From Proteobacteria bacterium UBA6921 (lineage in GTDB: Bacteria; Pseudomonadota; Gammaproteobacteria; SG8-11), in contig DKAR01000036.1 of the NCBI GenBank assembly GCA_002450895.1, positions 236-63,869 on the forward strand: a stretch of DNA of 63,634 bases, in the 5' to 3' direction. The position numbers were made by a program, and so were the translations under genes. Below are positions 4,909-41,282 of this stretch, one piece after another. The notes beneath the pieces were generated by a model, which saw only the letters and a list, made by a program, of their open reading frames with translations, was not told the origin of the DNA and made no database searches. How positions within the stretch are numbered: the first letter of the stretch is position 1; every line of letters starts with the position of its first letter.

Positions 4909-4937
4909 GTGAACTTATTGTTACATTTTCATGACAA
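4909..4937 (-). promoter_or_regulatory. Tandem Pho boxes of the pstS promoter
   Basis: The minus strand reads TTGTCAT-GAAA-ATGTAAC-AATA-AGTTCAC, three heptamers at exact 11-bp spacing. The array ends 38 nt upstream of the pstS ATG (4871). It overlaps the last codons and the stop codon (4929-4931) of phoR. Confidence 0.8.
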
Positions 4938-6254
4938 GGTAGAGGCCTGGTCGTTGGCGCGCGGAGGTGCGATTACGCCCGAAACCGGGAATTCACAGCT
5001 GAATTCACTCCCCTCGCCCAAGACGCTATCGATTTTCAATATCCCTTCATGGCGTTGTACGACGTGTTTGACAATGGCGAGACCGAGCCCCGTTCCGCCG
5101 GCTTCACGAGATCGGCCCACATCCACTCGATAGAAGCGTTCTGTTAATCGCGGGATGTGATTTTCAGAAATTCCGATTCCTGTGTCTTTAACTGCAAAGC
5201 GAACCCCGCCGTCCGAAGACTTCCATGTGACGTGGATTTTCCCGTGTGGCGGCGTGTAGCGAATTGCATTGAACACCAAGTTCGAAAACGCACTTCTCAG
5301 TTCTTCGTGATTGCCAAGAAGCCATAGGCTATCGTCTGAGTCGAGAGAAATATCATGTTCTCTCTCTCCGCTGAGCGCGCGGGCCTCGCTGCAGATTGCC
5401 TTCAACATCTCGGGAATGTCCACCGGATTTTTCCGCGGCGGTCCGACATCCGTTTCGAGGCGAGCAAGCAGCAAAAGTTGCTGCACGATCAGTTGCATCC
5501 GGCTGGCTTGCGCTTGCATCAGATCAATTTGATGTGACCAGTCGGAGATCTTTTCGTCCTTGTTATCAGACATGCTTTCAAGAAATCCGGTCAGCACCGT
5601 CAACGGTGTGCGCAACTCGTGCGACACGTTTGCAACGAAATCACGCCGCATTTGCTCGAGTCGCTGCATGCGAGAGACATCGCGTGCAATTAGCAGGCGC
5701 TGATTATCTCCATAGGGCACGACGTGGATTTGCAACGACAGCTGGCTGTCATTGGGTGACTGCACTAGCAAGGGCTGTACGTAGTTGCCTTGCGAGAGAT
5801 ATTTCAAAAAACTGGGATGTCGAAACAGATTGTCGAGTCGCTTTCCGACATCTTGCGCGCGGAGATTGAAGTACCGTGACGCGGCATGATTGAACCATTC
5901 TATTTCGTTGCTCGATTGCAATACGACGGTTGCGTCCGGCATCGCTGCCGTCCCTTTTCGAAACCGACTCAGCAGATCTGTAAGGCGCCGTCGTTGCGCG
6001 CGTCCGCGACGGTAAAACTGATAGACCGAATGATAGAGCTCCTCGTACACCCCGCCGATTTCGGGAAGTTCAGAAATTTTTCGCTGTCGCAGCCATTGAT
6101 CGAGTTGATAGACGTTGTACAGGTGATACGCGAGATAGGGGACGATGCAAATCAATATTCCAAGCGAATAGTATCCAGTGATGGCGCCGATGATGACGCC
6201 AACGACGACCAGTGCGACCAGTCGCCACGCCTCGGAAAGCCAGTGATCGAGCAA
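4929..6254 (-). CDS. phoR: Phosphate regulon sensor histidine kinase PhoR
   Basis: H-box SHELRTPLTVLTGF, G-boxes KDTGIGI and GGTGLGLAIVKH, and two N-terminal TM segments. The track ORF (to 6398) overlaps phoB. I place the start at TTG 6254-6252, 2 nt after the phoB stop; this start is uncertain. Confidence 0.85.
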   Translation of the reverse strand: MLDHWLSEAWRLVALVVVGVIIGAITGYYSLGILICIVPYLAYHLYNVYQLDQWLRQRKISELPEIGGVYEELYHSVYQFYRRGRAQRRRLTDLLSRFRKGTAAMPDATVVLQSSNEIEWFNHAASRYFNLRAQDVGKRLDNLFRHPSFLKYLSQGNYVQPLLVQSPNDSQLSLQIHVVPYGDNQRLLIARDVSRMQRLEQMRRDFVANVSHELRTPLTVLTGFLESMSDNKDEKISDWSHQIDLMQAQASRMQLIVQQLLLLARLETDVGPPRKNPVDIPEMLKAICSEARALSGEREHDISLDSDDSLWLLGNHEELRSAFSNLVFNAIRYTPPHGKIHVTWKSSDGGVRFAVKDTGIGISENHIPRLTERFYRVDVGRSREAGGTGLGLAIVKHVVQRHEGILKIDSVLGEGSEFSCEFPVSGVIAPPRANDQASTLS

Positions 6255-6256
6255 AC

Positions 6257-6946
6257 CTACCCCTTGGACGAGAAGCGGTAACCTGAACCGCGAACCGTTT
6301 GAATATAGCGGTCGTGGCCGTGTACGTCCAAGGCTTTGCGGAGACGGCGGATATGGACGTCGACAGTACGTTCGTCGACGTAAACGTTTTGGCCCCAAAC
6401 CTGATCGAGGAGCTGATCGCGGCTATATACGCGGTCCGGGTGCGTCATGAAGAAATGCAGGAGGCGAAACTCCGTCGGGCCCATATCCAGCACAGCGTCT
6501 TTGGCTGTGACGCGGTGGTTCACCGGATCGAGCGAAAGATCGTCACAGACGACAGCGGCGTCGTCGTCGTGCGGGCGGTAGCGTCGCAATACGGCTTTGA
6601 TTCGGGCAATCAGTTCGCGCGGCGAAAACGGTTTGGTGATGTAGTCGTCGGCACCCGACTCAAGTCCGCGCACGCGATCGTCTTCTTCGCCACGCGCCGT
6701 GAGCATGATCACCGGCAGGCTTCGCGTGGAGTCATTATTTTTCAACCGGCGCGCCAGTTCAACACCACTCATTGACGGCAACATCCAGTCCACTAGAACC
6801 AGATCAGGACGGCGATCGGCGACTTCGACCAGTGCCCGTTCTGCATCGCCTGTTTCAGCGACCGCAAATCCAGCCCTTTCTGCAGCGAAGCGCACCATTT
6901 CGCGAATGGGCGCTTCATCCTCAACTACCAAGATAAGTGAACGCAC
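6257..6946 (-). CDS. phoB: Phosphate regulon response regulator PhoB
   Basis: Receiver domain ([24 protein letters not shown]) and OmpR-type winged helix ([14 protein letters not shown]...[11 protein letters not shown]). The track ORF is N-terminally over-extended. GTG at 6946 gives the canonical 229 aa. Confidence 0.9.
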
Positions 6947-6998
6947 TAAACAAACACTCCCGGCCAAGTACAACGCGGCCGTATCGTAGAGTTGCAAT

Positions 6999-7016
6999 GT
7001 TACATTTCCGTTACAG
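6999..7016 (-). promoter_or_regulatory. Pho box of the phoB promoter (autoregulation)
   Basis: The minus strand reads CTGTAAC-GGAA-ATGTAAC, followed after about 10 nt by TACGAT. It lies 53 nt upstream of the proposed phoB GTG. Confidence 0.7.
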
Positions 7017-7123: not shown

Positions 7124-7141
7124 CTGTCACTGAATCTTCAC
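7124..7141 (+). promoter_or_regulatory. Candidate Pho box facing the beta-propeller/tpsB transcription unit
   Basis: The plus strand reads CTGTCAC-TGAA-TCTTCAC, about 90 nt upstream of 7231. It is divergent from the phoB box. Confidence 0.45.
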
Positions 7142-7230
7142 GAACAGTTTCTAGACTTCGCCTGCCTCCAAACGCCGACCACCGTCGTCGGAAACTGAAT
7201 AACTGAAGTATTCCGCAAGGAGCCCGTTCC

Positions 7231-9558
7231 GTGATCCATTTTCATGCCACAAGGATGTCCTGCGCACAGCGAGAAAATCACTCAAAGTCTTTGGTTATTA
7301 TGGTCTTATTGTTCTTTTTGGGGGTTCGCCCGGCGCTGGCGCAATCCCTCATATATATAGGTGTAACGCCGGTCACGGATCCGACGGGCATTTTGGTTAG
7401 CGAAAATCGTGCATCCGTCTACGTTTTGCGGGCTGGGGCGGATGCCATCGATACGTTGCCACGCGATTCGGTCACAGGGGTCTGGGGCGCGCCTCGAACA
7501 ATTGATCGCGAGTCGTCCGGAATCAGCAATCTGCGCAGTCCGTGGAAAATGGCCCTCAGTCCGGACCAGTCGAAACTATATGTCGTCTGTCGTGGCAGTC
7601 TTACCGATGCGACGAATCCGGATGCTTTATTGGTATTCGATCGTGATATTTCCAGCGGTGCGCTTGTGTATCGCGAATCGCACATCAACGGAGTGGCAGG
7701 TGTGTCCGGCATCGGCTTGCCGTCGTCAGTGACAGTAAGTCCCGACGGCACCCATGTTTACGTGACGAGTCAATCTGAGAATGCTGTCGCCCTGTTTGTG
7801 CAGAGTAACAATGGCGGTTTGCAATTTGTTGAGAGCTACAAACAAGGATCCGCGGGAATCAACGCACTGGATCAGCCGTTGAGTGCCCAGGTCAGCCCTG
7901 ACGGAAAACATCTTTACGTCGGCGCGCAGAACTCGAAATCGATTGCAAGATTTTCCCGCGATTCAATATCAGGCAAGCTGACATGGCTTGGTGCCCTCGT
8001 CGACAACAGTAGCGCGAGTTTCGCACTGGCGAAGCCGTTGGCAATTTCGGAAAGCCAGGACGGTCGATTTGTTTATGTCGCCAGTGAATCGGACGGTGCG
8101 GTTTCCGTTTTCGTCAGAGACACAATGACGGGAGATTTGACGCCACGCCAACGGATAAAGCAGGGCGACACCGGTGTCGATCACCTCGACCACGTTACAT
8201 CGATTGTATTGAGCGCCGACGAAACCCGACTTTTTGCAGTAAGCCCGACCGCGAACACATTGAGCGTGTTCACGCGGAATCCGACAACCGGGGAGCTCAT
8301 TCCTCTTGAGGCTCTGGTCGACGCAGGAAACGGCGGGGATTCTCTCGGAGGCGCCGTTGCCGTGACGCGTTCAGCCGATGGGCGATGGGTGGATGTCGCG
8401 GCAACATCGGACGACGCCATCAGCTCGTTCTCTGTGGGAGCCACGAATCTCCATCTTGCAGTCGATTCGCCGGCGGGAGCGCGGCTGGCCAACAAAACGC
8501 TGACGTTGTCGCTCACCGTCCAGAATGCGGCATCAAGCGGCACGGCGACGGGCGTGCGGTTGTTTGCGAATGTGCCGGACGAACTGAATGTCACGGACGT
8601 GCAGCCTGAGAGCGGAAGTTGCTCAAAACGTCCCGCGATGATTGATTGCATGCTGAATACACTTGGCAGCGGTACGTCAACAACCGTGACGATCATCGCT
8701 CTGCCCACACAGAGTCTCGCGAGCGTGCTGCGCTTTTCAGTGGTCGCTGATCAGCACGACGAAATGATCAGCGATAACAATGTTGAGATGATCCTGGAAA
8801 TCGTCGATACCAACCACACACCGCAAGCAGTCGATGACAGCGTCGTCACAACAGTCAATCAGTCATTGGAGATTGATGTATTGGCCAATGATTCCGATCC
8901 CGATCCGAATGACGCATTGACGATCAAGAGTTTCAATTCAACCAGCGTCCAGGGGGGCTCTGTCGTTCGAAATGCAGCGGGCACGCTCACCTACACGCCG
9001 CCGTCGGGGTTCAAGGGTCCGGATTCCTTCAACTACACGGTGAATGACGTCGAGGGGGCGACCGCATCGGCGCAAGTCAACATCTTCGTGAACTCCCCCC
9101 CGATCGCTGTCGACGACGTGTTTACTGTCTTGCCGGGTGCGCCGGCAACGTTGTTGGTGTTGTTGAATGACCACGATCCGGACATCAACGACCCGGTCTG
9201 GGTGGCCGATGTGGACGTTGTTTCAAGTGGCGGGAATTCCGTCACAGTCAGCCCGAATGGCGACGCGGTGAAATATTTCGCCGCGCGTGATTTTCTGGGT
9301 ACTGACGACTTTACCTATACGCTGACTGATTCTCACGGTGCGCTGGTGACGGCCCATGTCACGGTAAAGGTGGTTGCAAGCCTTGCCGCCGCGCAGGATG
9401 ACGGCACACAGGCGACAGCGACGAAAAAGAAGAAACACAGTGGTGCGTTCGATCCTTTGTGGTTGATCGCATTGATGGCTTTGACGTGGAAGCGACGACG
9501 CTGTTTCGCATCACGTCAGGGCGGGCGCCGACATCTCGCTGTAATACTTCCATCATAA
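7231..9558 (+). CDS. Large secreted/surface protein: lactonase-type 7-bladed beta-propeller repeats, a DUF11-like domain, two cadherin/Ig-like domains and a C-terminal TM-plus-basic tail
   Basis: Repeated blades: LYVVCRGS, HVYVTSQSENAVALF, HLYVGAQNSKSIARF, FVYVASESDGAVSVF and LFAVSPTANTLSVF. A DUF11-like segment reads LTLSLTVQNAASSGTATGVRLFANVP. Two units match the pattern AVDD...VLANDSDPD / LLNDHDPD...TYT. The tail is SGAFDPLWLIALMALTWKRRR. The true start may be the internal ATG (MSCAQ...). Confidence 0.6.
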   Translation: MIHFHATRMSCAQRENHSKSLVIMVLLFFLGVRPALAQSLIYIGVTPVTDPTGILVSENRASVYVLRAGADAIDTLPRDSVTGVWGAPRTIDRESSGISNLRSPWKMALSPDQSKLYVVCRGSLTDATNPDALLVFDRDISSGALVYRESHINGVAGVSGIGLPSSVTVSPDGTHVYVTSQSENAVALFVQSNNGGLQFVESYKQGSAGINALDQPLSAQVSPDGKHLYVGAQNSKSIARFSRDSISGKLTWLGALVDNSSASFALAKPLAISESQDGRFVYVASESDGAVSVFVRDTMTGDLTPRQRIKQGDTGVDHLDHVTSIVLSADETRLFAVSPTANTLSVFTRNPTTGELIPLEALVDAGNGGDSLGGAVAVTRSADGRWVDVAATSDDAISSFSVGATNLHLAVDSPAGARLANKTLTLSLTVQNAASSGTATGVRLFANVPDELNVTDVQPESGSCSKRPAMIDCMLNTLGSGTSTTVTIIALPTQSLASVLRFSVVADQHDEMISDNNVEMILEIVDTNHTPQAVDDSVVTTVNQSLEIDVLANDSDPDPNDALTIKSFNSTSVQGGSVVRNAAGTLTYTPPSGFKGPDSFNYTVNDVEGATASAQVNIFVNSPPIAVDDVFTVLPGAPATLLVLLNDHDPDINDPVWVADVDVVSSGGNSVTVSPNGDAVKYFAARDFLGTDDFTYTLTDSHGALVTAHVTVKVVASLAAAQDDGTQATATKKKKHSGAFDPLWLIALMALTWKRRRCFASRQGGRRHLAVILPS

Positions 9559-9598
9559 GGTTCGGCATTTTGCGGCGGGACAGCTCCCGCAGACAGGA

Positions 9599-11284
9599 TT
9601 GTCTGTGCACAACCGGATACTTGTGAACTTAATTCAGAAACATGATCAGGGCGTGATCGGTCAGCGCGCCCGGCATCGCACGGGCGCACTCTTTTCCGCG
9701 ACCGTCATTGTCTGCGCGTCTCTGACATTTTCTATCGCGGGCCAGGCGAATGGTGACGATGCGGTAAACACGCCCGCCGTACCCGCCGGCGAGGCCCGTT
9801 TCGAGGTTTCCGAATTTCGAGTTATTGGCAACACGCTTTTGGATGTCATCGATGTCGAAAGCGTGTTGATGAGGTTTTTGGGCCCTGGAAAGACCGGAGC
9901 GGACGTTGACGCGGCGCGGCAAGTGCTGGAACAACGCTACCGCGAGGCGGGATATCCCACCGTGCTGGTCAATGTGCCCGAGCAGGCGGTCACCGAGGGC
10001 GTGGTGCGCCTTCAGGTCGTCGAAGGAAAAGTAGAACGATTGTCGATTAAAGGCTCGAAGTACTATTCGCTTTCACTCATCAAGAAACAGGTCCCGGGCC
10101 TTGCCGAAGGCGCGATCCTTTATCTTCCCGAAGTACAACGGCAAATGAGTCAGGTCAATGCGGCGTCCGGTGATCGAACCGTGACACCCGTACTCCGCCC
10201 CGGAAAAACGCCAGGAACGGTCGAGGCAGAACTGCGTGTCACAGAAACGTTCCCGCTGCACGGAGATCTCGAACTCAACAACCGCTACAGTGGCGATACG
10301 AGCAAATCACGCCTGAGCGCGGGACTGCGCTATGACAATCTCTGGCAGAGTGCGCACAGCCTCGCTGTGAATTACCAGACCGCGCCGGAGGAGCCCAAGG
10401 AATCCACCGTGTGGTCCGGGACCTACCTGGCGCGTTTTACGACAACCGAGAATGTTCTGGTCGTTTATGGCGTTCAGTCCGACAGTGAAACCGCCGCCGT
10501 GGGCGATCTCAACGTGATTGGTAAGGGCCGCATAATGGGTGTCCGCGGCATTTTACCTCTTGTACCTCCGGAGCATGGGACTCGGACAATAACGCTCGGG
10601 CTCGATTACAAGGATTTTGACGAAACGATTACTGTCCAGGGTTCTGACACGCTCAACACGCCGATTACTTATGTAAGCTGGTTGGCACAATACGGCGGCG
10701 GCGAGCGGACGGAAGACTCGAGCCTGCAGTGGTCGCTGGGAGCTGTCGTTGGAATTCGTGGCATTGAGAACTCGAACCAGGAATTCGCCAACAAGCGCTA
10801 CAACGCGAAAGCGAATTTTCTGATATTGAAATCGGACCTCGACTATCAAACAAAAAATATTCAGTCGTCAACGCTCCGATGGCATGTGGCTGCACAGCTG
10901 TGCGACGCGCCCCTGATCAGCAACGAACAGTTCTTTGCCGGCGGCGCGGACTCGGTGCGCGGATACAAGGAGTCGCAAGCGCCGGGTGATTACGGTGCCG
11001 TGATGAATATTGAATGGTCAACGCCTTCCTATGCCGCCGCAGTGAGCGAGCAGGTTCGCGATCTTCGCGCTCTGTTCTTCATTGACGCGGCGTCACTTCG
11101 GCTTCGCGACGCGCTCCCCGGACAAGATCGGAGTACCGAACTCTATTCCACCGGTATTGGCCTGCGTACCAGCGCGTGGTCAACGCTATCCCTCGATGTC
11201 GATCTCGCCATGGCACTGAAAGAATTTGGTGACACAGACAAGAATGAGTGGCGCGTCCACGGGCGACTTTCCTACTCGTTCTAA
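9599..11284 (+). CDS. Two-partner secretion outer-membrane transporter (TpsB; ShlB/FhaC/HecB family)
   Basis: POTRA region: FEVSEFRVIGNTLL...GKVERLSIKGSKYYS. The Omp85/TpsB loop-6 motif VRGY is present in ADSVRGYKE. The C-terminus is the beta-barrel ending ...RLSYSF. The start is uncertain because the track start is a non-ATG codon. Confidence 0.85.
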   Translation: MSVHNRILVNLIQKHDQGVIGQRARHRTGALFSATVIVCASLTFSIAGQANGDDAVNTPAVPAGEARFEVSEFRVIGNTLLDVIDVESVLMRFLGPGKTGADVDAARQVLEQRYREAGYPTVLVNVPEQAVTEGVVRLQVVEGKVERLSIKGSKYYSLSLIKKQVPGLAEGAILYLPEVQRQMSQVNAASGDRTVTPVLRPGKTPGTVEAELRVTETFPLHGDLELNNRYSGDTSKSRLSAGLRYDNLWQSAHSLAVNYQTAPEEPKESTVWSGTYLARFTTTENVLVVYGVQSDSETAAVGDLNVIGKGRIMGVRGILPLVPPEHGTRTITLGLDYKDFDETITVQGSDTLNTPITYVSWLAQYGGGERTEDSSLQWSLGAVVGIRGIENSNQEFANKRYNAKANFLILKSDLDYQTKNIQSSTLRWHVAAQLCDAPLISNEQFFAGGADSVRGYKESQAPGDYGAVMNIEWSTPSYAAAVSEQVRDLRALFFIDAASLRLRDALPGQDRSTELYSTGIGLRTSAWSTLSLDVDLAMALKEFGDTDKNEWRVHGRLSYSF

Positions 11285-11546: not shown

Positions 11547-11564
11547 GAGTCACTCCGTCGTCAC
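11547..11564 (+). promoter_or_regulatory. Candidate Pho box upstream of the VPxP-tail / PstS-fold gene pair
   Basis: GAGTCAC-TCCG-TCGTCAC, with two GTCAC cores 11 bp apart. TGTAAT follows 9-10 nt later. The site is about 180 nt upstream of ATG 11744. Confidence 0.35.
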
Positions 11565-11743: not shown

Positions 11744-12595
11744 ATGAAAGTTTCGAAACTTGGTTTGAAGCAGAAGATGCTGGTTGCTGCCGTTGCAATG
11801 GCCGCGACGGGTGCAGCGCACGCGATCGATCAAACAAACAATGCCCCTTATGGTAGCGAACTTGTATTCAGCATTTGGGACCCGACCGTCGGTCAGGAAG
11901 CGTCCTTCACGCTTGGCCTGAACGTCGATCTGAATACCTTCTCATCCTCGGTTGCTACCGCTCCCGGCTACTCGGTGAATTTTGGAAACATTTTTTCTGA
12001 CGCCGGTTTCCAGCAGTTTCTGGGGGCCGCAAGTCTGAACGGCGCGAACGACCTCAATTCGCTGCGTTGGAACATTGGCGCCGCCAACACGATTTTGTCA
12101 TTCAACGAAGTCATGGGATTCACCCATGGGCCAGCGGGTCCGCTCAATGATGTAACGAACGCCGAAGTCATTCAGGCGTCTGGTGGCGCCGCCAATTTCT
12201 TCAGCAATTTTGGTTCGGGTAACTCCGGTGGTATCGACGGAACCGGTCCGAAATACGCTGGCAATCCTGTCAACTGGGGCGAAACGATGGTTGGCGGCAT
12301 TTTCCAGGGCACCGCTGGTAGCGTTGGCGACAGTCTCGGATTTTACGTCTTCACGAATAATCAAGAGAGCAGCGGAACGTTCGATGAACAGGCGCTTGCC
12401 GATGGCGGTGCCTATCAAAACCAATACGGTTTCGGCGCGTTCACGCTTAGCGCGAACGGTCAGCTGACGTACTCGATCGCCGATGCTCCGACGAATCCCC
12501 CACCGGTCCCGGTTCCGGCCGCTGTTTGGCTGCTCGGTTCCGCGATGGTTGGTTTGGTCGGCGTCGCACGTCGTCGCGAAAGCGAAAAGGCCTAA
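11744..12595 (+). CDS. Small secreted Gly/Asn/Ser-rich protein with a PEP-CTERM-like (VPLPA-type) C-terminal sorting tail
   Basis: Signal peptide MLVAAVAMAATGAAHA. The C-terminus is PPVPVPAAVWLLGSAMVGLVGVARRRESEKA, that is, a proline motif, a TM helix and an Arg cluster. Confidence 0.65.
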   Translation: MKVSKLGLKQKMLVAAVAMAATGAAHAIDQTNNAPYGSELVFSIWDPTVGQEASFTLGLNVDLNTFSSSVATAPGYSVNFGNIFSDAGFQQFLGAASLNGANDLNSLRWNIGAANTILSFNEVMGFTHGPAGPLNDVTNAEVIQASGGAANFFSNFGSGNSGGIDGTGPKYAGNPVNWGETMVGGIFQGTAGSVGDSLGFYVFTNNQESSGTFDEQALADGGAYQNQYGFGAFTLSANGQLTYSIADAPTNPPPVPVPAAVWLLGSAMVGLVGVARRRESEKA

Positions 12596-28818: not shown

Positions 28819-28836
28819 TCCGTATCGCGGGGTGTC

Positions 28837-32092: not shown

Positions 32093-32134
32093 CGCGCTCG
32101 CCTGACTCCCGTCAACGCATATCAGGACCCGACA

Positions 32135-32539: not shown

Positions 32540-32559
32540 TTGATGATCGGCCGCGTCTC

Positions 32560-33219
32560 ATGACCACGCGCGCGCATTACAAAAAATACCTGCCCCAAAT
32601 AGCAGGCGGGACACTGGTCGTTGCGGTGCTTGCCGGTCTGATTGCGTTCATCCAGCACATGCTGAATTCATCGACACCGATCGGTAAAAAAGCCGTTCAA
32701 CAAATCACGCTGCTGCAGCCGCCACCGCCGCCGCCACCCCCGCCGAAAGTTGAGGAACCGCCGCCGGAGCCTGAAGTCGTCGAAGACAAAACGCCCGATC
32801 CAGATCCACAACAGACAGACAACACGGCGGATGACGTCCCGCCGGGCACGGATCTTGGTCTCGACGCTGACGGAGGTGCCGGCGGCGATCTGTTCGGTCT
32901 GGTCGGGCGCAAGGGCGGTCGTGATCTGATCGGCAGCCGCGGCAGCATGGAGGCGTGGTATGCGAACGTCATCAAGTCTGACGTGCAGGATCTTCTTTAC
33001 GAAGATCCCGCCGTGCGCAAAAAACGTTACGCCGTCGATGTGCGTTTCTGGATCGATCCGGAAGGACACGTAAAACGTTTTGAGTTGCTGCGAACGAGCG
33101 GCGACCGCGATATGGATGGCGCGCTGAAAACCGCGCTGCGAAATTTTTCCAAGGTGCGTGAACGTCCGCCGGAGGAATTGCCACGTTCCTTCACGATCCG
33201 CATCACATCACGTCTTTAG
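32560..33219 (+). CDS. tonB: TonB-family energy transducer
   Basis: N-terminal TM anchor (GGTLVVAVLAGLIAFI), a proline-rich spacer (PPPPPPPPPPKVEEPPPEPE) and a TonB-C-like domain (YAVDVRFWIDPEGHVKRFELLRTSGDRDMDGALKTAL). Confidence 0.7.
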   Translation: MTTRAHYKKYLPQIAGGTLVVAVLAGLIAFIQHMLNSSTPIGKKAVQQITLLQPPPPPPPPPKVEEPPPEPEVVEDKTPDPDPQQTDNTADDVPPGTDLGLDADGGAGGDLFGLVGRKGGRDLIGSRGSMEAWYANVIKSDVQDLLYEDPAVRKKRYAVDVRFWIDPEGHVKRFELLRTSGDRDMDGALKTALRNFSKVRERPPEELPRSFTIRITSRL

Positions 33220-33228
33220 GAATTCGCC

Positions 33229-35037
33229 GTGCAGGCACGATTTCTGGAAACACAAAAAAAGGAACGACTTGTGATTTCAAAAGGGCATACAACGAAAATA
33301 ATACTGGCCGCATTTTGTATGGGGTCGTGGTCGCTGCTCTCGAGTGCCGCAGAAATCACCACGCCGCCGCCTGCGCCCGAACCGGGCGTGACGCCGGAAC
33401 AACCCAAGCCGGAGGCGTCGCCCGCCGACCAAGCCATGCCCGATGTTTCGCCGGAAACCCAGCGCGAGGCGGAGTCACTGGTGAATGCGGTGAAAAAACG
33501 CGTTGCGAACGAAAACCAGCAGGCGCCGCTGCCGCCGGCGGAAACCAATGCGATCCGCGTGACGCATGTTCCGGAAACCATCAAGAACGAGATTCGCGAA
33601 CAGGTCAAAGCGGAGTTGCACGATCAGATCGTGCAGGATGTCTTCACGCAGGCGCGCAATGAACAGTGGGGTTTGCCGCAGGCGCTGCCATCGTGGGTGA
33701 ACAAGTTTTCGCTGAAGGGTGATATGCGCCTGCGCGAGCAGGGGGACTATTTCGACAGCGGGAACATCGGTTGCAACATCAGCGACGGGTATGTTGACTT
33801 TAATGTCGTAAACGCCAAGGGTGGCGTCGGTAAAGCCGGCCTGGATCGCTGTATCAACACAACAGAAGATCGCCAGCGTCTGCGCACCCGTGCCCGGCTC
33901 GGGGCGGATGCAAAAGTGAACGACACGTTGAAAGCGGTGCTGCGAATAAGCACCGGCAACACACGCGATCCGGTATCCACCAATCAGACGCTTGGCAATT
34001 ATGGTGGCCGGTACGGTGTGGTGTGGGATGAAGCCTATTTGCGCTACGACGGTATGGACCTGGATCGCTTTCCCTGGCTGACGCTCTATGGCGGGCGCAT
34101 GGCGAATCCCTGGCTGTCGACTGATCTCGTTTGGGACAACGACCTGGCGTTCGAAGGCCTTGCCGGGACGATGCGCTTCAATTTGCGCGGGTCGGGAAAT
34201 TTGCTCGACATGAATGAACGGGACCGAATTCTGTTCCTCACTGTCGGTGCATTCCCGTTGCAGGAAGTCGAGCTATCAAAACGGGACAAGTGGCTTTATG
34301 GCGTTCAGCTGGGGACGGATTTGATCTTTCTTAACCAGTCTACGCTGCGAATTGGTCTCGCGTACTACCACTACGAAAACATTACCGGAGTGCGCAATTC
34401 ACTCGATTCCGTGGACTATGACTTTACCGCACCGGGGTATGTGCAAAAAGGCAATGGCCTGTTCGATATCCGCAACGACGACTCAACGTCGGATCCTCTG
34501 GGGAATTCGGATTATTGGGCGCTGGCCGCGGACTACAAACTTGCGGACCTCACCATTCAGTACGACAGTCTCGCACTCGCGCCACATCACATTGTTACAA
34601 CGATCGACGTGGTCAAGAACATCGGGTATGACAAGGGTGAAATCTGGAAGCGCACCAACGGCAATGGCGTGCAGTATGCCGGCGGATTTGCGACCAATGT
34701 GGGCGCGAGCGATTCCGAAAAAGCCGCCGCGTCCGTCAAGGAACGCTCGCTCGGATATCAGGTGATGCTCAGCTATGGATGGCCGATTGTCGCGGAGCGC
34801 TATACGTGGCGGGTGCACGGTGAATATCGTTACCTGCAACGCGACGCGGTGCTGGATGCGTTTACCGATTCAGACTTTCATCTGGGCGGCACGGATGCCA
34901 AGGGGTGGATCATCGGCGGCGACTACGCCATCGACGAGAACACTGTATTGTCATTCCGATATTTGACTTCCGATTCGATCGACGCCGCGCCGTTGTCGAT
35001 CGATTCCGTTCAGCTGGATCTTTCCGCCAAATTCTGA
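33229..35037 (+). CDS. Outer-membrane beta-barrel (putative porin family) with a Pro-rich, helical N-terminal extension
   Basis: Signal peptide ...SWSLLSSAAE, then a PAPEPGVTPEQPKPE linker. Alternating beta-strand sequence follows (FSLKGDMRLREQGDY..., LRTRARLGADAKVN, VLRISTGN, GYQVMLSYGW, WRVHGEYRYLQRD). The C-terminal residue is aromatic (...LDLSAKF). The exact start is uncertain (GTG 33229). Confidence 0.5.
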   Translation: MQARFLETQKKERLVISKGHTTKIILAAFCMGSWSLLSSAAEITTPPPAPEPGVTPEQPKPEASPADQAMPDVSPETQREAESLVNAVKKRVANENQQAPLPPAETNAIRVTHVPETIKNEIREQVKAELHDQIVQDVFTQARNEQWGLPQALPSWVNKFSLKGDMRLREQGDYFDSGNIGCNISDGYVDFNVVNAKGGVGKAGLDRCINTTEDRQRLRTRARLGADAKVNDTLKAVLRISTGNTRDPVSTNQTLGNYGGRYGVVWDEAYLRYDGMDLDRFPWLTLYGGRMANPWLSTDLVWDNDLAFEGLAGTMRFNLRGSGNLLDMNERDRILFLTVGAFPLQEVELSKRDKWLYGVQLGTDLIFLNQSTLRIGLAYYHYENITGVRNSLDSVDYDFTAPGYVQKGNGLFDIRNDDSTSDPLGNSDYWALAADYKLADLTIQYDSLALAPHHIVTTIDVVKNIGYDKGEIWKRTNGNGVQYAGGFATNVGASDSEKAAASVKERSLGYQVMLSYGWPIVAERYTWRVHGEYRYLQRDAVLDAFTDSDFHLGGTDAKGWIIGGDYAIDENTVLSFRYLTSDSIDAAPLSIDSVQLDLSAKF

Positions 35038-35048
35038 GGAGGCCCGTT

Positions 35049-35717
35049 ATGCAAACTCAACTTGTCTATCTTGCCGCTGCTTTGATCATGCTGGTATCCA
35101 CGGCCGGAAACGCCGAGACAGCGCGTCGCGAATCGGGTGGCGCCGATAGCGCCGCATTGCTTCGTGCACAAGGGCAGGTACGCGAAATGGCGGCGCAGCG
35201 CGACGCCCTCGCCGCCGAGAATGAAAAGCTCAAGGATGAAATGAAGAAGAAGTTGGAGGAAAAAGACGCAAAGATTGCATCGATGAACAAACGAATGGAT
35301 GCAATGCAAAACAGTTCAGAGCGATCGGACGCCGTCGCTGAAAAAACACGGGAAGTGAATCAGGCCATGCGCGACCGGATCCTCGAAACCCAGGAAAAGA
35401 TGCAGAAGCTGGTGGACAAATACAAGGAATTGGTTGCCGCGCTGCGGGTAATTGAAGACGAGCGTACGAACCTGCAAAAGACGGTTGCGCAAAAGAACTC
35501 CGAAATCGACAGCTGCGCCAACAACAACGTGACGCTCTACAACACCAGCCTGGAACTGATCGACCGTTACGAAAACAAGGGCGTATGGGATGCGATGCTG
35601 GAGAAGGAGCCGGTGACCCAGCTCAAGCGCGTTGCAATGGAAAACGCCGTACAGGATTACCGAAACCGCGTTGAATCAGCAAAGGTTGAAGTTCCGGACA
35701 GTCGCCTTTCCAACTGA
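35049..35717 (+). CDS. Secreted coiled-coil protein
   Basis: ATG 35049 with signal peptide LAAALIMLVSTAGNAE, then about 150 residues of heptad-like, charged sequence (AAENEKLKDEMKKKLEEKDAKIASMNKRMDAMQ...). It starts 11 nt after the porin stop. The track ORF start at 34905 is over-extended. Confidence 0.55.
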   Translation: MQTQLVYLAAALIMLVSTAGNAETARRESGGADSAALLRAQGQVREMAAQRDALAAENEKLKDEMKKKLEEKDAKIASMNKRMDAMQNSSERSDAVAEKTREVNQAMRDRILETQEKMQKLVDKYKELVAALRVIEDERTNLQKTVAQKNSEIDSCANNNVTLYNTSLELIDRYENKGVWDAMLEKEPVTQLKRVAMENAVQDYRNRVESAKVEVPDSRLSN

Positions 35718-36152
35718 CCGCTCTCGAAATGCGAGTGTGGGATATTTAAAGGTCGCCGGACCACCTGTCGGCAAGAAATGCGTCGGATGCTATTGGCATC
35801 GTAGGTGCCGATGTGATCGGACCGTATTACGTTGCTCAATGCATTTCGAAATGCCCTCGTAGTTCAAATGCAGGACCCCTCCCGGGTTTGGTCACACTTG
35901 ATTCAAAGAAGCGTCATTGACACCCCGTAAAACATCGCGTGCCGGGTGGGACGAGAATGCGCCGATCCAACCTCGCGCGATAGTCGCAAAACCGTTCGCG
36001 CGCACAAGTTTCCACCGGCAGGTCTTTTGCGCCGCACGATTCTGCAGATCGGGCGCTGCGATGGGCGAAGGAGTGTGGGCGATGATGTTTGTGGTGCCCT
36101 GCAAGGCACCACGTCGCATGTGCGGACGCAGGGTAAACATGGAGAAGGCACT

Positions 36153-36842
36153 ATGCTCCGAAAAAAAATCATCCCGGTCTTGTTGTGCGCAGGAATGGGT
36201 CCAGTCGGCGTTGCTCAAGCAACGGCGGTGTCGTATTACATGGATCAATCCAATGTTGCCAACGCGCCCGCGATCGCTGACGGCACCGCGAATTTTCTGC
36301 AGGTGACGATCGACGACGAAGGTGCAGCCGGTTACATCAATTTCACCGTCAGTGTGCTTCCTGCGCTGGGCAGTCTGGCAGGCAGCAATTTTGGTATTGA
36401 AAAGTTTTCGTTCAACGTGACCAGTGCAGGCGTGTTACCGTCGGATTCGGGCTGTACGCCCGGGCCGTCGTGTACCGACTGGTTGCTGCCCGCCGGGTGG
36501 TCGGCAAATACGCCGCCGCCACCCAACCAGAACGATGGTTTCGGAAAATTCGACGTTGAAGTTTCCGATGGTGGCACGGCGCGGCAAACGACGTTGCAGT
36601 TTTCGTTTGCCTCGACGAACACGTTGGCGATGTTGCTGGATCCGTCGGCAAATCCCGCCGCTGAAGGCAATGCGTATTTTGCCGCTCATGTCGCAGGATT
36701 CAGCACGACAGACACGTCGAACAACATTGTGACGAGTGCTTATTTCGGAGCTACCGACTTGTTGTCGGTTCCCGTTCCGGCACCGTTGCTGTTGCTGGGT
36801 TCGGCGTTGTTGTCGCTGATTCGGTTCCGTAAAAAACAATAG
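36153..36842 (+). CDS. Small secreted protein with a PEP-CTERM-like (VPxP) C-terminal sorting tail
   Basis: ATG 36153 with signal peptide MLRKKIIPVLLCAGMGPVGVAQA. The C-terminus is LLSVPVPAPLLLLGSALLSLIRFRKKQ. The track ORF start at 35946 is over-extended. Confidence 0.65.
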   Translation: MLRKKIIPVLLCAGMGPVGVAQATAVSYYMDQSNVANAPAIADGTANFLQVTIDDEGAAGYINFTVSVLPALGSLAGSNFGIEKFSFNVTSAGVLPSDSGCTPGPSCTDWLLPAGWSANTPPPPNQNDGFGKFDVEVSDGGTARQTTLQFSFASTNTLAMLLDPSANPAAEGNAYFAAHVAGFSTTDTSNNIVTSAYFGATDLLSVPVPAPLLLLGSALLSLIRFRKKQ

Positions 36843-36959: not shown

Positions 36960-36999
36960 GTGTCACATCGCTGTCTCTTCTGTTTCATGAATCCGTCAT
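36960..36999 (+). promoter_or_regulatory. Two tandem Pho boxes upstream of the PhoX-like gene
   Basis: GTGTCAC-ATCG-CTGTCTC-TTCT-GTTTCAT-GAAT-CCGTCAT, four heptamers at exact 11-bp spacing. The array ends about 100 nt upstream of ATG 37101. Confidence 0.65.
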
Positions 37000-37100: not shown

Positions 37101-38501
37101 ATGTTCCGACAGACGATCATAACCGCAGCCGCTGCCGTCGCAATGATTCCCGCGGCAGCCTGTGCAACGACCGGCCCAAGCAGCTCGCAAACACCTTACC
37201 TCACGCCGTCTGCAGCGGGTGTTGAATTCACTTCGATCCTGACCGTTGGCGATACCGTGAAGAAGAAAAACAAGGGCAGTGAAACGTATCGCATGGTCGG
37301 CATCCCCGATGGGCTGGGAGCCTATGATAACGGCGATGGCACAATCACCGTTTTGATGAATCAGGAACTCGGCAGCTCACTTGGTGCGGTTCGTGCGCAT
37401 GGTTCGAAGGGTGCTTTTGTCTCGCAATGGACGGTTCGCAAGAGCGACCTCGCCGTTCTCAAAGGCAAAGACCTGATGGAGAACGTTGTCCTCACTTCCG
37501 GTGGCTCGACGGCGTTCAACCGCTTCTGTTCCGCGGATCTCGCCGCAACGACGGCCTACTTCAACAGCACCAGCGGCAAAGGCTTCAACGAAGGCCGTAT
37601 CTTCCTGAACGGTGAAGAAACCTCCGGCGGCCGCGCCATGGCGCACATGGCATCAGGTCGCGATCAGGGCACCAGCTATGAGTTGGCGGCGCTGGGCACC
37701 GCGGCGTGGGAAAACCTGGTGGCCAGCCCGTTCGAACAGGACAAGACCGTCGTCGCGGGAATGGATGACGGTTCGATCGGCGCCAGCAAGGTTTACATCT
37801 ACGTCGGGCAAAAGCAGGAAGAAGGCAGCCCGATCGAAATGGCCGGCCTGACCAATGGGACGAGCTTCCAGGTGCTCGTGCAAGGTGCGGCGACTGAAGC
37901 TTCGATTGGTAATGACTTCTCCGGCGCGTTCTCGCTGGTCACCACCGGCGGCACCGGCCTGAACCGCGTGGAAGACGGCGCATGGGATACTGTGAATCCG
38001 AACCGCTTCTACTTCGTGACCACCGACAGCTTCAACGGTAACACCCGGCTGTGGCGCATGACGTTCAGCGACATCACCAACCCGACCGCGGGCGGCATGA
38101 TTGAGGTGCTCGTCAACGGTGTGGTGGACGGACAGAAGATGATGGACAACATCACCGTGGATGCGGCCGGCAACGTCTACATGCAGGAAGACGTCGGCAA
38201 CAACGTTCGTCTGGGCAAGATCTGGAAGTACGACACCACCGGCGCGCTGACGGAACTTGCCGAGCATGACGCCAACCGCTTTATCAACGGCGCCCCCGGA
38301 GACATCGACGGCAGCGCAACCAAGGCGGAAGACGAAGAGTCCTCCGGCATCATCGAAGTTACGAGCATGTTCGAAGGCGTCGACGGCTATGACACCGCGA
38401 ACAACCGCTACTTCCTGCTCGACGTCCAGGCGCACTACGCGACCGGCGACGCCGAAACGGTGGAAGGCGGCCAGTTCCTGATGATGAAGGCGCCCAAGTA
38501 G
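37101..38501 (+). CDS. Secreted beta-propeller protein, PhoX/DUF839-like putative phosphatase (tentative)
   Basis: Signal peptide MFRQTIITAAAAVAMIPAAACA. YRMVGIPDGLGAYDNGDGTITVLMNQELG...GAVRAHGSKGAFVSQWTV resembles the N-terminal signature I associate with DUF839/PhoX proteins. The Pho boxes upstream support a phosphate-scavenging role. Confidence 0.45.
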   Translation: MFRQTIITAAAAVAMIPAAACATTGPSSSQTPYLTPSAAGVEFTSILTVGDTVKKKNKGSETYRMVGIPDGLGAYDNGDGTITVLMNQELGSSLGAVRAHGSKGAFVSQWTVRKSDLAVLKGKDLMENVVLTSGGSTAFNRFCSADLAATTAYFNSTSGKGFNEGRIFLNGEETSGGRAMAHMASGRDQGTSYELAALGTAAWENLVASPFEQDKTVVAGMDDGSIGASKVYIYVGQKQEEGSPIEMAGLTNGTSFQVLVQGAATEASIGNDFSGAFSLVTTGGTGLNRVEDGAWDTVNPNRFYFVTTDSFNGNTRLWRMTFSDITNPTAGGMIEVLVNGVVDGQKMMDNITVDAAGNVYMQEDVGNNVRLGKIWKYDTTGALTELAEHDANRFINGAPGDIDGSATKAEDEESSGIIEVTSMFEGVDGYDTANNRYFLLDVQAHYATGDAETVEGGQFLMMKAPK

Positions 38502-38660: not shown

Positions 38661-39029
38661 CTAGCCACCACGAGAACTACGCAGGCGCTTGGCAAGCGAT
38701 CGCATCACCTGCAGCGAGAACATCGGTGTGTTTTGGGACAAATAGACAAACCGTTTTTCGTCAACCGGAAGGACTCGGCAGGCCGTCTTTGCAACGGCGC
38801 TTGCTGTACGCGGGCTGTTTTCAATCAATCCCACTTCTCCGAGAAACGAACCGGGACCTATCGTGTCAATTGTTGTCCCGTTATGAACAATATCAACCTC
38901 GCCTTGTTGCACGATGTACATCAAACCGCCGGCGGCGTCGCCTTGGGAAAAGATCGTTATGCCGGCAGCAACGTCGGTTCCGCCCTCGGCATGTGCGAAA
39001 ATCATCGTGGTCATATATGAGTTGTCCAA
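38661..39029 (-). CDS. Stand-alone cyclic-nucleotide-binding (CAP effector) domain protein
   Basis: 122 aa containing IFSQGDAAGGLMYIVQQGEVDI and the phosphate-binding-cassette-like GSFLGEVGLIENSPRTASAVAKT. No DNA-binding or other output domain is present. Confidence 0.75.
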   Translation of the reverse strand: MDNSYMTTMIFAHAEGGTDVAAGITIFSQGDAAGGLMYIVQQGEVDIVHNGTTIDTIGPGSFLGEVGLIENSPRTASAVAKTACRVLPVDEKRFVYLSQNTPMFSLQVMRSLAKRLRSSRGG

Positions 39030-39321
39030 TCGGCGTCGGGCCTGTTGTTCAAGCGGTTCACTATCACGCGTTCAAAACAGGCGAATTCAAAACTTCACCG
39101 TTCCCATGAGCAGGGTGCGGTGAAAACCTCAGTCATTGTTTTGCAGTTTTGTTACAGCCTTATTAAGGGCGGTCTCGGAATTGCTCCGCTGCGGCTTGAT
39201 GCAGCAGATTCCATGATTACAGACGGTTCCTGAAGAACAGTTATTTCCAGGCCACCGATGTTTGACCCGCGTCGCGCCGGCCGACCAGGCCCGTATCCGA
39301 TCGAGTACTCCATCTCGAGCT

Positions 39322-39361
39322 TGGTCACAATTTGGTCATGTTAGTGTCACCGTCCCGTTAC
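39322..39361 (+). promoter_or_regulatory. Two tandem Pho boxes upstream of the PAP2-GT4 pair
   Basis: TGGTCAC-AATT-TGGTCAT-GTTA-GTGTCAC-CGTC-CCGTTAC, four heptamers at exact 11-bp spacing. After about 10 nt comes GATATTAT. The array ends 54 nt upstream of ATG 39415. Confidence 0.7.
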
Positions 39362-39414
39362 CTTCGCGGCCGATATTATGTTCAATTTTTACGGCCGTCC
39401 CACGGGAGGCGACC

Positions 39415-39948
39415 ATGCGGATTCAAAGTCTGTTTCAGCGCATGGATGTGTATGAGCTGAGAATGTGCGAAGTCCTGAACCGGATCAGTCGTCTGGATTC
39501 AGTACGAAAGTTCTTCGTCGCAATCAGCCGTCTTGGCAACGGAGTGTTCTGGTATGTTTTGATCGCTTTGCTTCCCTTGATGCAGGGGGACGGGGCGATG
39601 ACTGCGTCTGTTCACATGACCGCGGTCGGGTTAGTCGGAGTCGCGATTTACAAATTTCTGAAGTCACGTTTGGTGCGCGAGCGGCCGTACATCAATCGAT
39701 CGACAATTTCCCTCGGCACCGCGCCGCTCGATGTTTATAGCTTTCCCTCGGGGCACACGTTGCACGCGGTTTCGTTTTCCGTCGTCGCTTTGTCGTATTT
39801 CCCGCATCTGTCGCTGCTGTTGATTCCATTTACTGCCTTGGTCGCGATGTCGCGAGTGGTTCTTGGGCTTCACTATCCCACCGATGTTGTCGCCGGCGCC
39901 GTGATCGGTTTATCCCTGGCCTACTCGAGTTTTCTGTTTGTCGGATGA
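39415..39948 (+). CDS. PAP2-family (type 2 phosphatidic acid phosphatase superfamily) membrane phosphatase
   Basis: ATG 39415 is preceded by GGGAGG. All three PAP2 motifs are present: KSRLVRERP, FPSGHT and SRVVLGLHYPTDV. The track ORF start at 39262 is over-extended. Confidence 0.85.
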   Translation: MRIQSLFQRMDVYELRMCEVLNRISRLDSVRKFFVAISRLGNGVFWYVLIALLPLMQGDGAMTASVHMTAVGLVGVAIYKFLKSRLVRERPYINRSTISLGTAPLDVYSFPSGHTLHAVSFSVVALSYFPHLSLLLIPFTALVAMSRVVLGLHYPTDVVAGAVIGLSLAYSSFLFVG

Positions 39949-39985
39949 TCCATTGAAGTCCGAAGAAAAAGACAAGCGCAGGACA

Positions 39986-41170
39986 ATGCGAATACTTTTC
40001 ATTTCAGATGTCTATTTTCCTCGGGTGAATGGCGTGTCGACGTCGATCAAGACGTTCATGGCGGCGCTGGAGCGTCTGGGTCACGAAGTATTTCTGATCG
40101 CGCCGGACTATGGAAACAATGGTCCGGATGATGCGCGCATCATGCGCATTCCGGCACGGGTTGTGCCCTTTGACCCGGAAGATCGATTCATGTCCAGCGC
40201 CGAAATCGGAAAGCGATTCGACGCGCTAAAGTCACACGGGTTTGATTTGGTGCATATCCATACACCGTTCGTCGCGCATTATTCAGGCCTTTCAATTGCG
40301 CGCGCGCTGGATATTCCGGTATTCGAAACGTATCACACGTTTTTCGAAGAGTATCTCTACCACTACGTGCCGTTCGTCCCGAAAACATGGATGCGCGCCC
40401 TGGCGCGTCGTTTCAGCCGATCGCAGTGCATGGCGGTGGATGCCGTTGTCGTTCCATCACGACCGATGCTGGATGTGTTGTTCAAGTATGGCATCCGCGC
40501 GCATATGGAAATTATTCCCACCGGACTCGAGCTGGACCGTTTCAAAGGCGGTGATGGTGCACGTTTTCGTGCAAAGCACGGAATTTCGCAAGATCGGCCG
40601 GTACTTTTGCATGTGGGTCGTGTTGCTCATGAAAAAAACATCGAGTTTCTAATGCAGGTCGTTTCACGGATACGTTCATCGGTGCGGAACATTATGTTTG
40701 TAATTGCTGGCGAAGGCCCCGCGCTTCCCAGCCTGCGTGCGATGGCGAGCGATCTGGCCCTCGACTCTAATGTGATGTTCATTGGATACATGGATCGTGA
40801 ATCTGAACTTCTGGACTGCTATTGCGCGGCGGACCTCAAGATCTTTGCGTCACGTACAGAGACTCAGGGGCTGGTACTTCTTGAAGCTATGGCGCTGGGT
40901 GTTCCGGTCGTGTCGACAGCGATAATGGGTACGCAGGATGTATTGGCTCCGGGTTGTGGCGCCGCCATCGTCAGTGAGGATGTGCAGTCCTTTGCAGACG
41001 TTGTGACTCGACTCCTGGGCAGCCCGGAAGTGCGGACCCGAATGAGCGAAGAAGGTAAAGACTACGTGCACGAATGGTCGGCCGATGCGATGGCGCAGCG
41101 CCTCTCCGGCGTTTACGCGGACGGCATCAAGTCTTCCATCGCCGCCTCGGTCGGTGTGCTTCGGTCGTGA
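39986..41170 (+). CDS. Family-4 (GT-B) glycosyltransferase
   Basis: N-terminus MRILFISDVYFPRVNGVSTSI and the EX7E region ETQGLVLLEAMALGVPVV. It starts 38 nt after the PAP2 stop. The track start at 39938 is a TTG that overlaps the PAP2 gene. Confidence 0.8.
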   Translation: MRILFISDVYFPRVNGVSTSIKTFMAALERLGHEVFLIAPDYGNNGPDDARIMRIPARVVPFDPEDRFMSSAEIGKRFDALKSHGFDLVHIHTPFVAHYSGLSIARALDIPVFETYHTFFEEYLYHYVPFVPKTWMRALARRFSRSQCMAVDAVVVPSRPMLDVLFKYGIRAHMEIIPTGLELDRFKGGDGARFRAKHGISQDRPVLLHVGRVAHEKNIEFLMQVVSRIRSSVRNIMFVIAGEGPALPSLRAMASDLALDSNVMFIGYMDRESELLDCYCAADLKIFASRTETQGLVLLEAMALGVPVVSTAIMGTQDVLAPGCGAAIVSEDVQSFADVVTRLLGSPEVRTRMSEEGKDYVHEWSADAMAQRLSGVYADGIKSSIAASVGVLRS

Positions 41171-41242
41171 GAAGAATCATCTCGGCACTAAGGCCGTTTC
41201 AAACGCCTGTGACCGGGTTGTCGAAGATAGAAACCGTGAACG

Positions 41243-41282
41243 TTGTCATCTAAACGCCATGCAGCTGTCATTATTGCGACAC
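41243..41282 (+). promoter_or_regulatory. Candidate Pho boxes upstream of the first PilZ gene
   Basis: TTGTCAT-CTAA-ACGCCAT-GCAG-CTGTCAT-TATT-GCGACAC. The two strong heptamers are 22 bp apart, in register with two weaker ones. An AT-rich candidate -10 (CACTATTTAT) follows. Confidence 0.45.

Follow-up and report, generated by a model that had tools for sequence, protein, structure and literature searches.

We analysed a 63,634-nucleotide stretch of DNA (the window) from Proteobacteria bacterium UBA6921, covering positions 236 to 63,869 of the forward strand of contig DKAR01000036.1, in which short direct repeats resembling Escherichia coli Pho boxes stand before many neighbouring genes. The window opens on the minus strand with pstA, pstC, pstS, phoR and phoB (1-6946), assigned by Pfam and NCBIfam. 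PstS is identified by Pfam PBP_like_2 together with NCBIfam TIGR02136. PhoB (6257-6946, minus strand) matches the TIGR02154 equivalog with 360.5 bits against a cut-off of 296.2, and the sensor kinase PhoR (4929-6263, minus strand) matches TIGR02966 with 447.6 bits against a cut-off of 334.2, in addition to the Pfam models PhoR, HisKA and HATPase_c. Upstream of pstC, pstS and phoB, and of many of the units that follow, lie arrays of heptamers related to CTGTCAY that are separated by 4 bp and recur with an 11-bp period. A preliminary description of the sequence had listed 13 such arrays and read the window as a Pho-regulon island; each of the 13 was found again letter for letter, at the same coordinates and on the same strand.

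For a spacing test that bypasses any choice of sites, we divided the window into 4,940 bp of intergenic DNA (7.8%) and 58.7 kb of coding DNA and counted same-strand pairs of the GTMAY core at every spacing. The intergenic DNA holds nine pairs at a spacing of 11, four at 22 and one at 33; every remaining spacing between 4 and 14 is empty, and the spectrum of the coding DNA has no peak. The pattern GTMAY-N6-GTMAY occurs 12 times in the window against 1.45 +/- 1.1 expected, with none of 100 shuffles reaching 12, and 10 of the 12 matches are intergenic. A canonical matrix trained on the pstS, pstC and phoB sites only gave, at a score of at least 11 and with the training sites excluded from the counts, 11 intergenic and 4 coding matches, a 33-fold ratio of densities (Fisher p = 6e-10); dinucleotide-shuffled intergenic DNA yielded a mean of 0.53 matches, compared with 14 observed. 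Coding and shuffled DNA, the comparison proposed in the preliminary description, are thus matched far less often than the upstream regions. Leave-one-array-out scoring, expressed as the chance expectation per 150-bp gene-facing upstream region (the window has about 25 such regions), gave an expectation of at most 0.012 for 11 of the 13. We rejected a repeat or a mobile element as the source of the motif, as the heptamers alone recur and their flanks differ, and an Rfam scan of the whole window returned no RNA family.

Across 30 heptamers the consensus is (C/G)(T/C)GTCA(C/T), with G3 (27/30), T4 (28/30), A6 (29/30) and Y7 (30/30) nearly invariant and C5 present in 24/30. The 4-bp spacers are rich in A/T (56 of 84 bases, or 67% against a background of 43%, p = 1.2e-5), with the excess concentrated in the last two spacer positions. 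All arrays face their genes, as had been reported, and the start codon lies 22-179 bp from the last heptamer. In 8 of the 13 arrays a TANNNT hexamer begins 10-12 bp past the last heptamer (TACGAT at both pstC and phoB, TAGCTT, TAGACT, TACCGT, TAAGCT, TATTGT and TATTAT), against a background of 0.7% per intergenic position, and two more arrays carry the near-consensus TGTAAT and GATAAT at +10. This geometry is that of the promoter class in which an activator site takes the place of the -35 element.

The Pho box of E. coli is built of two direct 7-bp repeats with an A/T-rich stretch of 4 bp, usually in the place of the -35 element (PMC4971064). The DNA-binding domain of the window PhoB matches E. 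coli PhoB (PDB 3t72, 1gxp) with 156 bits over 96 residues, and shows no difference from the 3t72 and 1gxp chains in the recognition helix. A matrix made from the heptamers of the window, when run over 30 kb of E. coli K-12, placed on top the sites before phoA (19.3), pstS (19.3) and phoB (16.2), which we take to be the classical, experimentally defined Pho boxes: CTGTCAT-aaag-TTGTCAC before phoA, TTTTCAT-aaat-CTGTCAT before phoB, and both CTGTCAT-aaaa-CTGTCAT and CTTACAT-ataa-CTGTCAC before pstS. Exactly 10 bp on from these boxes stands TATAGT, CATAAT or TATTTT, the same N10 gap as in the window. In the window itself, the three top-scoring sites, apart from that of a gene for a 360-amino-acid (360-aa) secreted protein, lie before pstS, pstC and phoB. 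The window promoters thus resemble those of E. coli phoA, phoB and pstS in their CTGTCAY 7-bp repeats, their 11-bp period, the presence of two to four repeats each and the position of the box in place of the -35 element. They differ in that heptamer positions 1-2 are looser (G/C and C/T are common) and in that about 15 Pho promoters are packed into about 40 kb, whereas those of E. coli are scattered round the chromosome. The period, the A/T-rich spacer, the N10 distance to the -10 element, the canonical pst and phoB genes and the PhoB helix all bear out the E. coli-type Pho box architecture that had been proposed.

Our preferred reading, to which we assign a probability of roughly 87%, is that the heptamer arrays are Pho boxes that would be bound by phosphorylated PhoB and would co-induce the neighbouring units at low phosphate; every sequence-level test that we ran upheld the interpretation of the window as a Pho-regulon island. 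In this model, phosphate scarcity would lead PhoR to phosphorylate PhoB, and PhoB dimers would load head-to-tail on the two to four direct repeats, which would stand in for the -35 element and end 10 bp before a sigma70-type -10 element, and would recruit sigma70 RNA polymerase. At least 13 and probably 15-17 transcription units at about 3.8-43.8 kb would be switched on together. These would include pstS, pstCA, phoBR, a putative esterase of the metallophosphoesterase fold, a PhoX-like phosphatase and a PAP2/diacylglycerol-glycosyltransferase pair, and further a giant two-partner secretion (TPS) protein resembling PdtA/PdtB systems, a DUF2341-ExbB/ExbD/TonB/Porin_5 operon, VPLPA/PEP-CTERM surface proteins and two PilZ proteins. 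The head of an exopolysaccharide (EPS) cluster would probably also belong to the co-induced set. Regulation of this kind is textbook biology, and a large part of the gene set has already been described in Pseudomonas aeruginosa.

Among the pst and pho genes, a Pho box absent from the preliminary list lies before pstC (3803-3820, minus strand; CTGTAAC-attt-CTGTCAT, N10, TACGAT), with a leave-one-out dimer score of 17.9 that is reached by none of 117,354 coding positions. The three-heptamer array before pstS (4909-4937, minus strand; score 15.1) overlaps the 3' end of phoR, and the box before phoB-phoR (6999-7016, minus strand), which would serve autoregulation, is followed by N10 and TACGAT. 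PstC itself (1507-3780, minus strand) runs to 757 residues and carries a long extension at its N-terminus with faint WD40-like matches; its 191.7 bits fall just under the NCBIfam PstC cut-off of 196.45.

Beyond phoB, the plus-strand box at 7124-7141 (N10, TAGACT; score 14.8) precedes a gene for a beta-propeller/Big_9 protein and a ShlB-type tpsB (7231-11284), and that at 11547-11564 (plus strand; N10, TGTAAT; score 13.6) precedes a VPLPA-CTERM protein gene (11744-12595, plus strand) and a gene for a 519-aa protein, labelled 'PstS-fold' in the preliminary description, for which sequence searches of PDB, Pfam and NCBIfam gave no match. The three-heptamer array at 16911-16939 (minus strand; score 19.4) belongs to the 360-aa secreted protein gene (15773-16855). 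The boxes before a HEAT-repeat gene (17687-17704, minus strand; N10, TACCGT; score 15.1; gene at 17039-17638) and before a TPR-TpsA-exosortase-like operon (17721-17738, plus strand; TAAGCT after 11 bp; score 17.0; operon at 17783-30032) form a back-to-back divergent pair. This operon encodes a TPR protein and a 3,476-aa TpsA (17783-28818) followed by a small exosortase-family protein (28837-29376), all on the plus strand. The next box (30164-30181, plus strand; N10, GATAAT; score 13.7) stands before a plus-strand operon (30224-35717) that comprises DUF2341-LamG-ExbB, ExbD, TonB and Porin_5 genes (30224-35037) and a coiled-coil gene. A weak candidate array at 35889-35917 (plus strand; score 7.8, expectation 0.07) precedes a second PEP-CTERM-type (VPxP) gene (36153-36842), a syntenic array in a gammaproteobacterial metagenome-assembled genome (MAG; locus L002) being its sole support.

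Four-heptamer arrays precede the PhoX-like beta-propeller gene (36960-36999, plus strand; N10, TAGCTT; score 15.0; gene at 37101-38501), the PAP2-GT4 pair (39322-39361, plus strand; N10, GATATT; score 14.9; genes at 39415-41170) and two PilZ genes (41243-41282, plus strand; N10, TATTGT; score 11.7, expectation 0.012; genes at 41335-42106). Between the first two of these units lies a gene for a cyclic nucleotide monophosphate (cNMP)-binding protein (38661-39029, minus strand), and before it a weak candidate of uncertain register (39140-39168, minus strand; CCTTAAT-aagg-CTGTAAC-aaaa-CTGCAAA; score 8.1, expectation 0.06). The PAP2, GT4 and PilZ genes, which extend up to 42106 on the plus strand, were, like the other named genes, assigned by Pfam and NCBIfam; two gene labels that did not fare so well are discussed below.

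Sites of the 360-aa family are conserved in other genomes. Of 80 metagenomic loci, 70 non-redundant homologues had sufficient upstream sequence, and 25 of these 70 carry a gene-facing dimer scoring at least 12 within 200 bp, compared with 0.4% of shuffles, 0/70 coding segments and 6/70 on the opposite strand. In 17 of the 25 boxed homologues TANNNT stands at exactly +10. The motif reaches a density of 2.16 per kb upstream of the family genes and 0.057 per kb across the remaining 540 kb, and because of this difference we rejected the possibility that it is a general promoter element. Outside the 360-aa family, the comparison covered 3-10 loci per gene family. The box of the exbB operon is kept in three genomes, together with the odd form of its second heptamer, yTGCAAy, and with the N10 distance to the -10 element: CTGTCAC-ggaa-CTGCAAT-N10-GATAAT in the window, TCGTAAC-agaa-TTGCAAC-N10-CATACT in L002 and CCGTAAC-ctga-TTGCAAT-N10-CATACT (score 9.6) on a Methylomagnum plasmid (L094). 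Before PAP2-GT4, four in-register heptamers followed by N10 and GATAGT or GATATT recur at three orthologous promoters (L100-L102), making four genomes with the window. The PhoX-like gene of L002 has three heptamers (CTGTCAC-taac-CTGTAAC-ggtc-TTTTCAC, scores 18.3 and 15.1), the PhoX-like homologues L090 and L092 have modest boxes (11.6-11.7), and a syntenic three-heptamer array also stands before the VPLPA-CTERM gene located after the exbB operon of L002, a comparator for the 11547-11564 box too. Matches in the high-GC plasmid modules L095-L099 are ambiguous, and in that of Klebsiella (L098) the sole intergenic match points the wrong way. In L002 (7465-8802), a phoR fragment comprising the C-terminal half only precedes the PhoX-like gene and adjoins open reading frames (ORFs) that recur at the contig end and resemble transposase remnants; the Pho array lies just past this phoR remnant, as at phoR-pstS in the window.

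Within the window, heptamer positions 1-2 differ between sites, being C/A-T at the pst and phoB sites and G-C or T-G at the HEAT, TPR, VPxP and PAP2 sites, and regulators of the OmpR family typically recognise direct repeats whose period is about 10-11 bp. The GCGTCAY/TGGTCAY arrays could accordingly be bound by a different regulator of the OmpR/PhoB family, in which case two regulons would overlap. We consider this very unlikely: in the 360-aa family, promoters from metagenomes combine both variants in one dimer, for example GCGTCAC-ggcg-CTGTCAC, the variant sites score far above the coding background in the leave-one-out analysis and keep the same N10 gap, and PhoB is the only response regulator that the window encodes.

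Several observations weigh against control of all these units by PhoB. Binding of PhoB, phosphate-dependent induction and the extents of the operons are inferred from sequence, in an organism known from metagenomes only. The sites before the cNMP-binding gene (39140-39157) and the second VPxP gene (35889-35917), which had been listed as arrays, do not rise above chance, with expectations of 0.06-0.07; over about 25 upstream regions they are compatible with chance on their own. The pstS and 360-aa arrays have no TANNNT at +10 after their third heptamer; counted from the second, +10 holds just CAGACT and CAAGAT. No box scoring at least 11 was found on the Methylomagnum plasmid L094, including near its PhoX and alkaline phosphatase genes, the region upstream of PhoX being cut by the end of the locus, and the PhoX-like homologues L003-L006 and L091 lack a box scoring at least 11.5-12. 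The HEAT, TPR-TpsA and PilZ sites had no orthologous promoters for comparison; HEAT, TPR and TpsA neighbours are not conserved at the 360-aa homologue loci (the 80 metagenomic loci and L087-L089), which therefore give no comparators for those promoters. The two sites at background, together with a few coding matches that score 12-14.5, are also what might be expected if the arrays were chance matches chosen by a motivated reader from intergenic DNA of moderate GC content. For the set as a whole this is scarcely credible, since the spacing, the shuffles, the intergenic-to-coding ratio, the orientation, the spacers, the -10 geometry and the conservation all reject chance.

The TPS and ExbB genes under putative Pho boxes belong to a module with a published precedent in P. 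aeruginosa. The window has Pfam matches to TPS, ShlB/POTRA_2, MotA_ExbB, ExbD, TonB and Porin_5, and its TpsA combines a TPS domain with a C-terminal DUF3739. Homologues of TpsA, TpsB, DUF2341-ExbB, ExbD, TonB, Porin_5 and the coiled-coil protein form a contiguous module on plasmids or chromids of Klebsiella, Cupriavidus, Methylosinus, Aquabacterium and Burkholderia, in the order TpsA, TpsB, ExbB, ExbD, TonB, putative porin, hypothetical protein, YbjN, PPIase and LysR, which is also the gene order of P. aeruginosa PA0690-PA0701 (PMC7035377). In P. aeruginosa, pdtA and phdA-pdtB-exbB2D2-tonB4-PA0696-0701 are induced by phosphate starvation in a PhoB-dependent manner, with pho boxes verified by electrophoretic mobility shift assay (PMC4971064), and PdtA, PA0696 and PA0698 are among the proteins most enriched under phosphate limitation (PMC9769906). 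Compared by gene list and through the homologues on the five replicons, the window resembles this PUMA3 cluster in its giant TpsA, TpsB, ExbB, ExbD, TonB, porin and hypothetical protein. It differs in that the module is not one operon: the beta-propeller-tpsB (tpsB at 9599-11284), TPR-tpsA-exosortase-like (tpsA at 18388-28818) and exbB-coiled-coil (30224-35717) units each have their own box, and the YbjN, PPIase and LysR genes of the P. aeruginosa-type module are absent from the window.

In P. aeruginosa, sigma-VreI is required along with PhoB at the pdtA and phdA promoters (PMC4971064), and on a Methylosinus plasmid (L096) genes for an extracytoplasmic function (ECF) sigma factor, FecR and a TonB N-terminal protein lie beside tpsB-exbB. 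By this precedent, PhoB could bind in the window while the adhesin and ExbB promoters also require an ECF sigma factor whose gene lies in another part of the genome. We regard such an additional layer as unlikely. No sigma or anti-sigma gene is found among the annotated genes of the window, and the promoter geometry differs: the VreA/VreI/VreR-controlled module of P. aeruginosa has a distinct -35 element downstream of the pho box, whereas the window boxes themselves stand at -35, with sigma70-like TAAGCT, GATAAT and TAGACT 10-11 bp on. Homologues of the uncharacterised PdtA/ExbB2-TonB4/PA0696 module of P. aeruginosa occur in environmental proteobacteria, some of them also with putative Pho boxes.

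Three further observations concern this module. On plasmid pMSC49a of Methylosinus sp. C49 (L096, 2661-17779) the ECF sigma, FecR and TonB-N-terminal genes lie directly upstream of tpsB-exbB-exbD-tonB-porin-PPIase-YbjN-tpsA, an arrangement fully equivalent to vreAIR/PUMA3 of P. aeruginosa, here in a methanotroph of the Alphaproteobacteria. After tpsA, and in the same operon (28837-30032, plus strand), the window encodes a 179-aa exosortase-family protein, whose best match, XrtM, scores 89.8 bits against a cut-off of 125, together with an unnamed membrane protein. Finally, the beta-propeller/Big_9 protein (7231-9558, plus strand) ends in a C-terminal hydrophobic stretch followed by KRRR, resembling a sorting signal.

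The labels 'metallophosphoesterase' and 'PhoX-like' of the preliminary description found no backing in Pfam and held at the level of the predicted fold. The 360-aa secreted protein (15773-16855, minus strand) has no Pfam, NCBIfam or PDB sequence match. An AlphaFold2 model, built like the one described below on an alignment of homologues, reached a mean predicted local distance difference test score (pLDDT) of 82, and its top PDB folds were Rv0805, GAP50, acid sphingomyelinase and Mre11 (E 1.6e-7; template modelling (TM) score 0.44/0.63); a calcineurin-like metallophosphoesterase fold is thus predicted. The invariant residues D50, Y53, G81-D82, D116-N117-E118, H123, G295-D296 and H298 would partially match the canonical metal-binding motifs. 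Homologues number more than 4,700, each of them annotated as hypothetical, and neither Pfam nor NCBIfam has a model for the family; PF00149 appears in 1 of 120 among the homologues listed. We consider it a candidate for an unrecognised family of phosphate-starvation esterases. Likewise, the 466-aa PhoX-like protein has no sequence match in Pfam (PF05787/DUF839), NCBIfam or PDB, and PF05787 is present in homologues at 57-69% identity. Its model (pLDDT 89) matches best P. fluorescens PhoX (3zwu; E 2e-12, TM 0.59), which predicts a PhoX-type beta-propeller fold; the protein would represent a divergent PhoX-like subfamily.

In the middle of the cluster, at 14496-15601 (plus strand), a gene for a MIP-family channel overlaps one for an ArsC-like arsenate reductase, with no Pho box of its own. 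Arsenate uptake by cells runs through phosphate transporters, and for this reason the placement of the two genes within a Pho cluster may be functional.

Under phosphate stress, phospholipids can be replaced by glycolipids (PMC8528852, PMC4796936), and the PAP2-GT4 pair recalls the Pho-regulated PlcP-Agt remodelling systems (PMC8528852, PMC4796936, PMC9239053) in that a GT4 glycosyltransferase and a phosphatase stand under a Pho box. The partner in PlcP-Agt systems is the metallophosphoesterase PlcP, whereas in the window it is a PAP2-family phosphatase. The best NCBIfam match of the GT4 protein is alpha-monoglucosyldiacylglycerol synthase, at 157 bits below the cut-off of 400; homologues at 57-64% identity carry the JGI name '1,2-diacylglycerol 3-alpha-glucosyltransferase', and the PAP2-GT4 pairing is kept in L100-L102. 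By analogy, the pair would have a role in the formation of phosphorus-free lipids.

A link between phosphate limitation, cyclic di-GMP (c-di-GMP) and a giant surface protein is known from P. fluorescens, in which the Pho regulon governs adhesion through c-di-GMP via RapA-LapD-LapA (PMC3032545). The window would share this combination with differences in both components: in P. fluorescens a phosphodiesterase is under Pho control and a type I-secreted adhesin is released, whereas in the window PilZ receptors are Pho-boxed and the large protein, a substrate of two-partner secretion, would be induced.

Earlier publications describe PhoB as controlling a TpsA/TpsB/ExbB-ExbD-TonB/porin cluster, glycolipid remodelling and c-di-GMP/adhesin circuits (PMC4971064, PMC7035377, PMC8528852, PMC3032545). 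As far as we found, what the window adds to published Pho regulons are the VPLPA/PEP-CTERM proteins, the small exosortase-family gene, the two PilZ proteins and probably the EPS head. Taken together, PhoB without an ECF layer might run a surface programme (giant TPS protein, exosortase-sorted VPLPA/PEP-CTERM proteins, PilZ proteins and EPS-export head) alongside scavenging, with the 360-aa family, Pho-boxed across many bacteria, as an unrecognised class of phosphate-starvation phosphoesterases; this joint proposal is possible but tentative, and its parts may well not all hold together. The analysis offers a confident sequence-level map of a Pho regulon for an organism known from metagenomes only, suggests that most of such a regulon can fit into a compact region of some 40 kb, and nominates as Pho members the metallophosphoesterase-fold family, the PhoX-like subfamily, PAP2/GT4, PEP-CTERM and PilZ genes and possibly EPS export. 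The more novel leads are the unnamed, Pho-boxed metallophosphoesterase-fold family and the possible Pho link to exosortase, EPS and PilZ genes.

The preliminary description reported no arrays before the EPS operons, which is probably wrong. An unannotated gene for a 156-aa protein (42719-43189) heads the EPS region, and before it lies a box that had not been listed (42630-42647, plus strand; GTTTCAT-ttct-CTGTCAT-N10-GAAATT; score 16.3). Both the site and its -10 element are conserved in the syntenic contig L100, where TCTTCAT-tctt-TTGTCAC-N10-GAAAGT stands before a 70%-identical homologue of the 156-aa gene. Two weaker sites follow. The candidate box before a Poly_export gene starting at 43822 (43746-43763, plus strand; N10, TAGCCT; score 10.7) has an analogous box in L100 with TATCGT 10 bp on, and a weak candidate without comparative support precedes a gene at 56571 (56462-56479, plus strand; N10, TACGAT; score 9.3). 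Within the same region, a dimer GTTTCAC-ttct-TTTTCAT (47300-47317, plus strand; score 13.6) lies inside the 3' end of a Wzz/GNVR gene, near the possible start of the ORF at 47281-48207, and could be an internal promoter or a chance match. An inverted heptamer pair, ATGACAgTGTCAT (42593-42605), is located just upstream of the 42630-42647 box.

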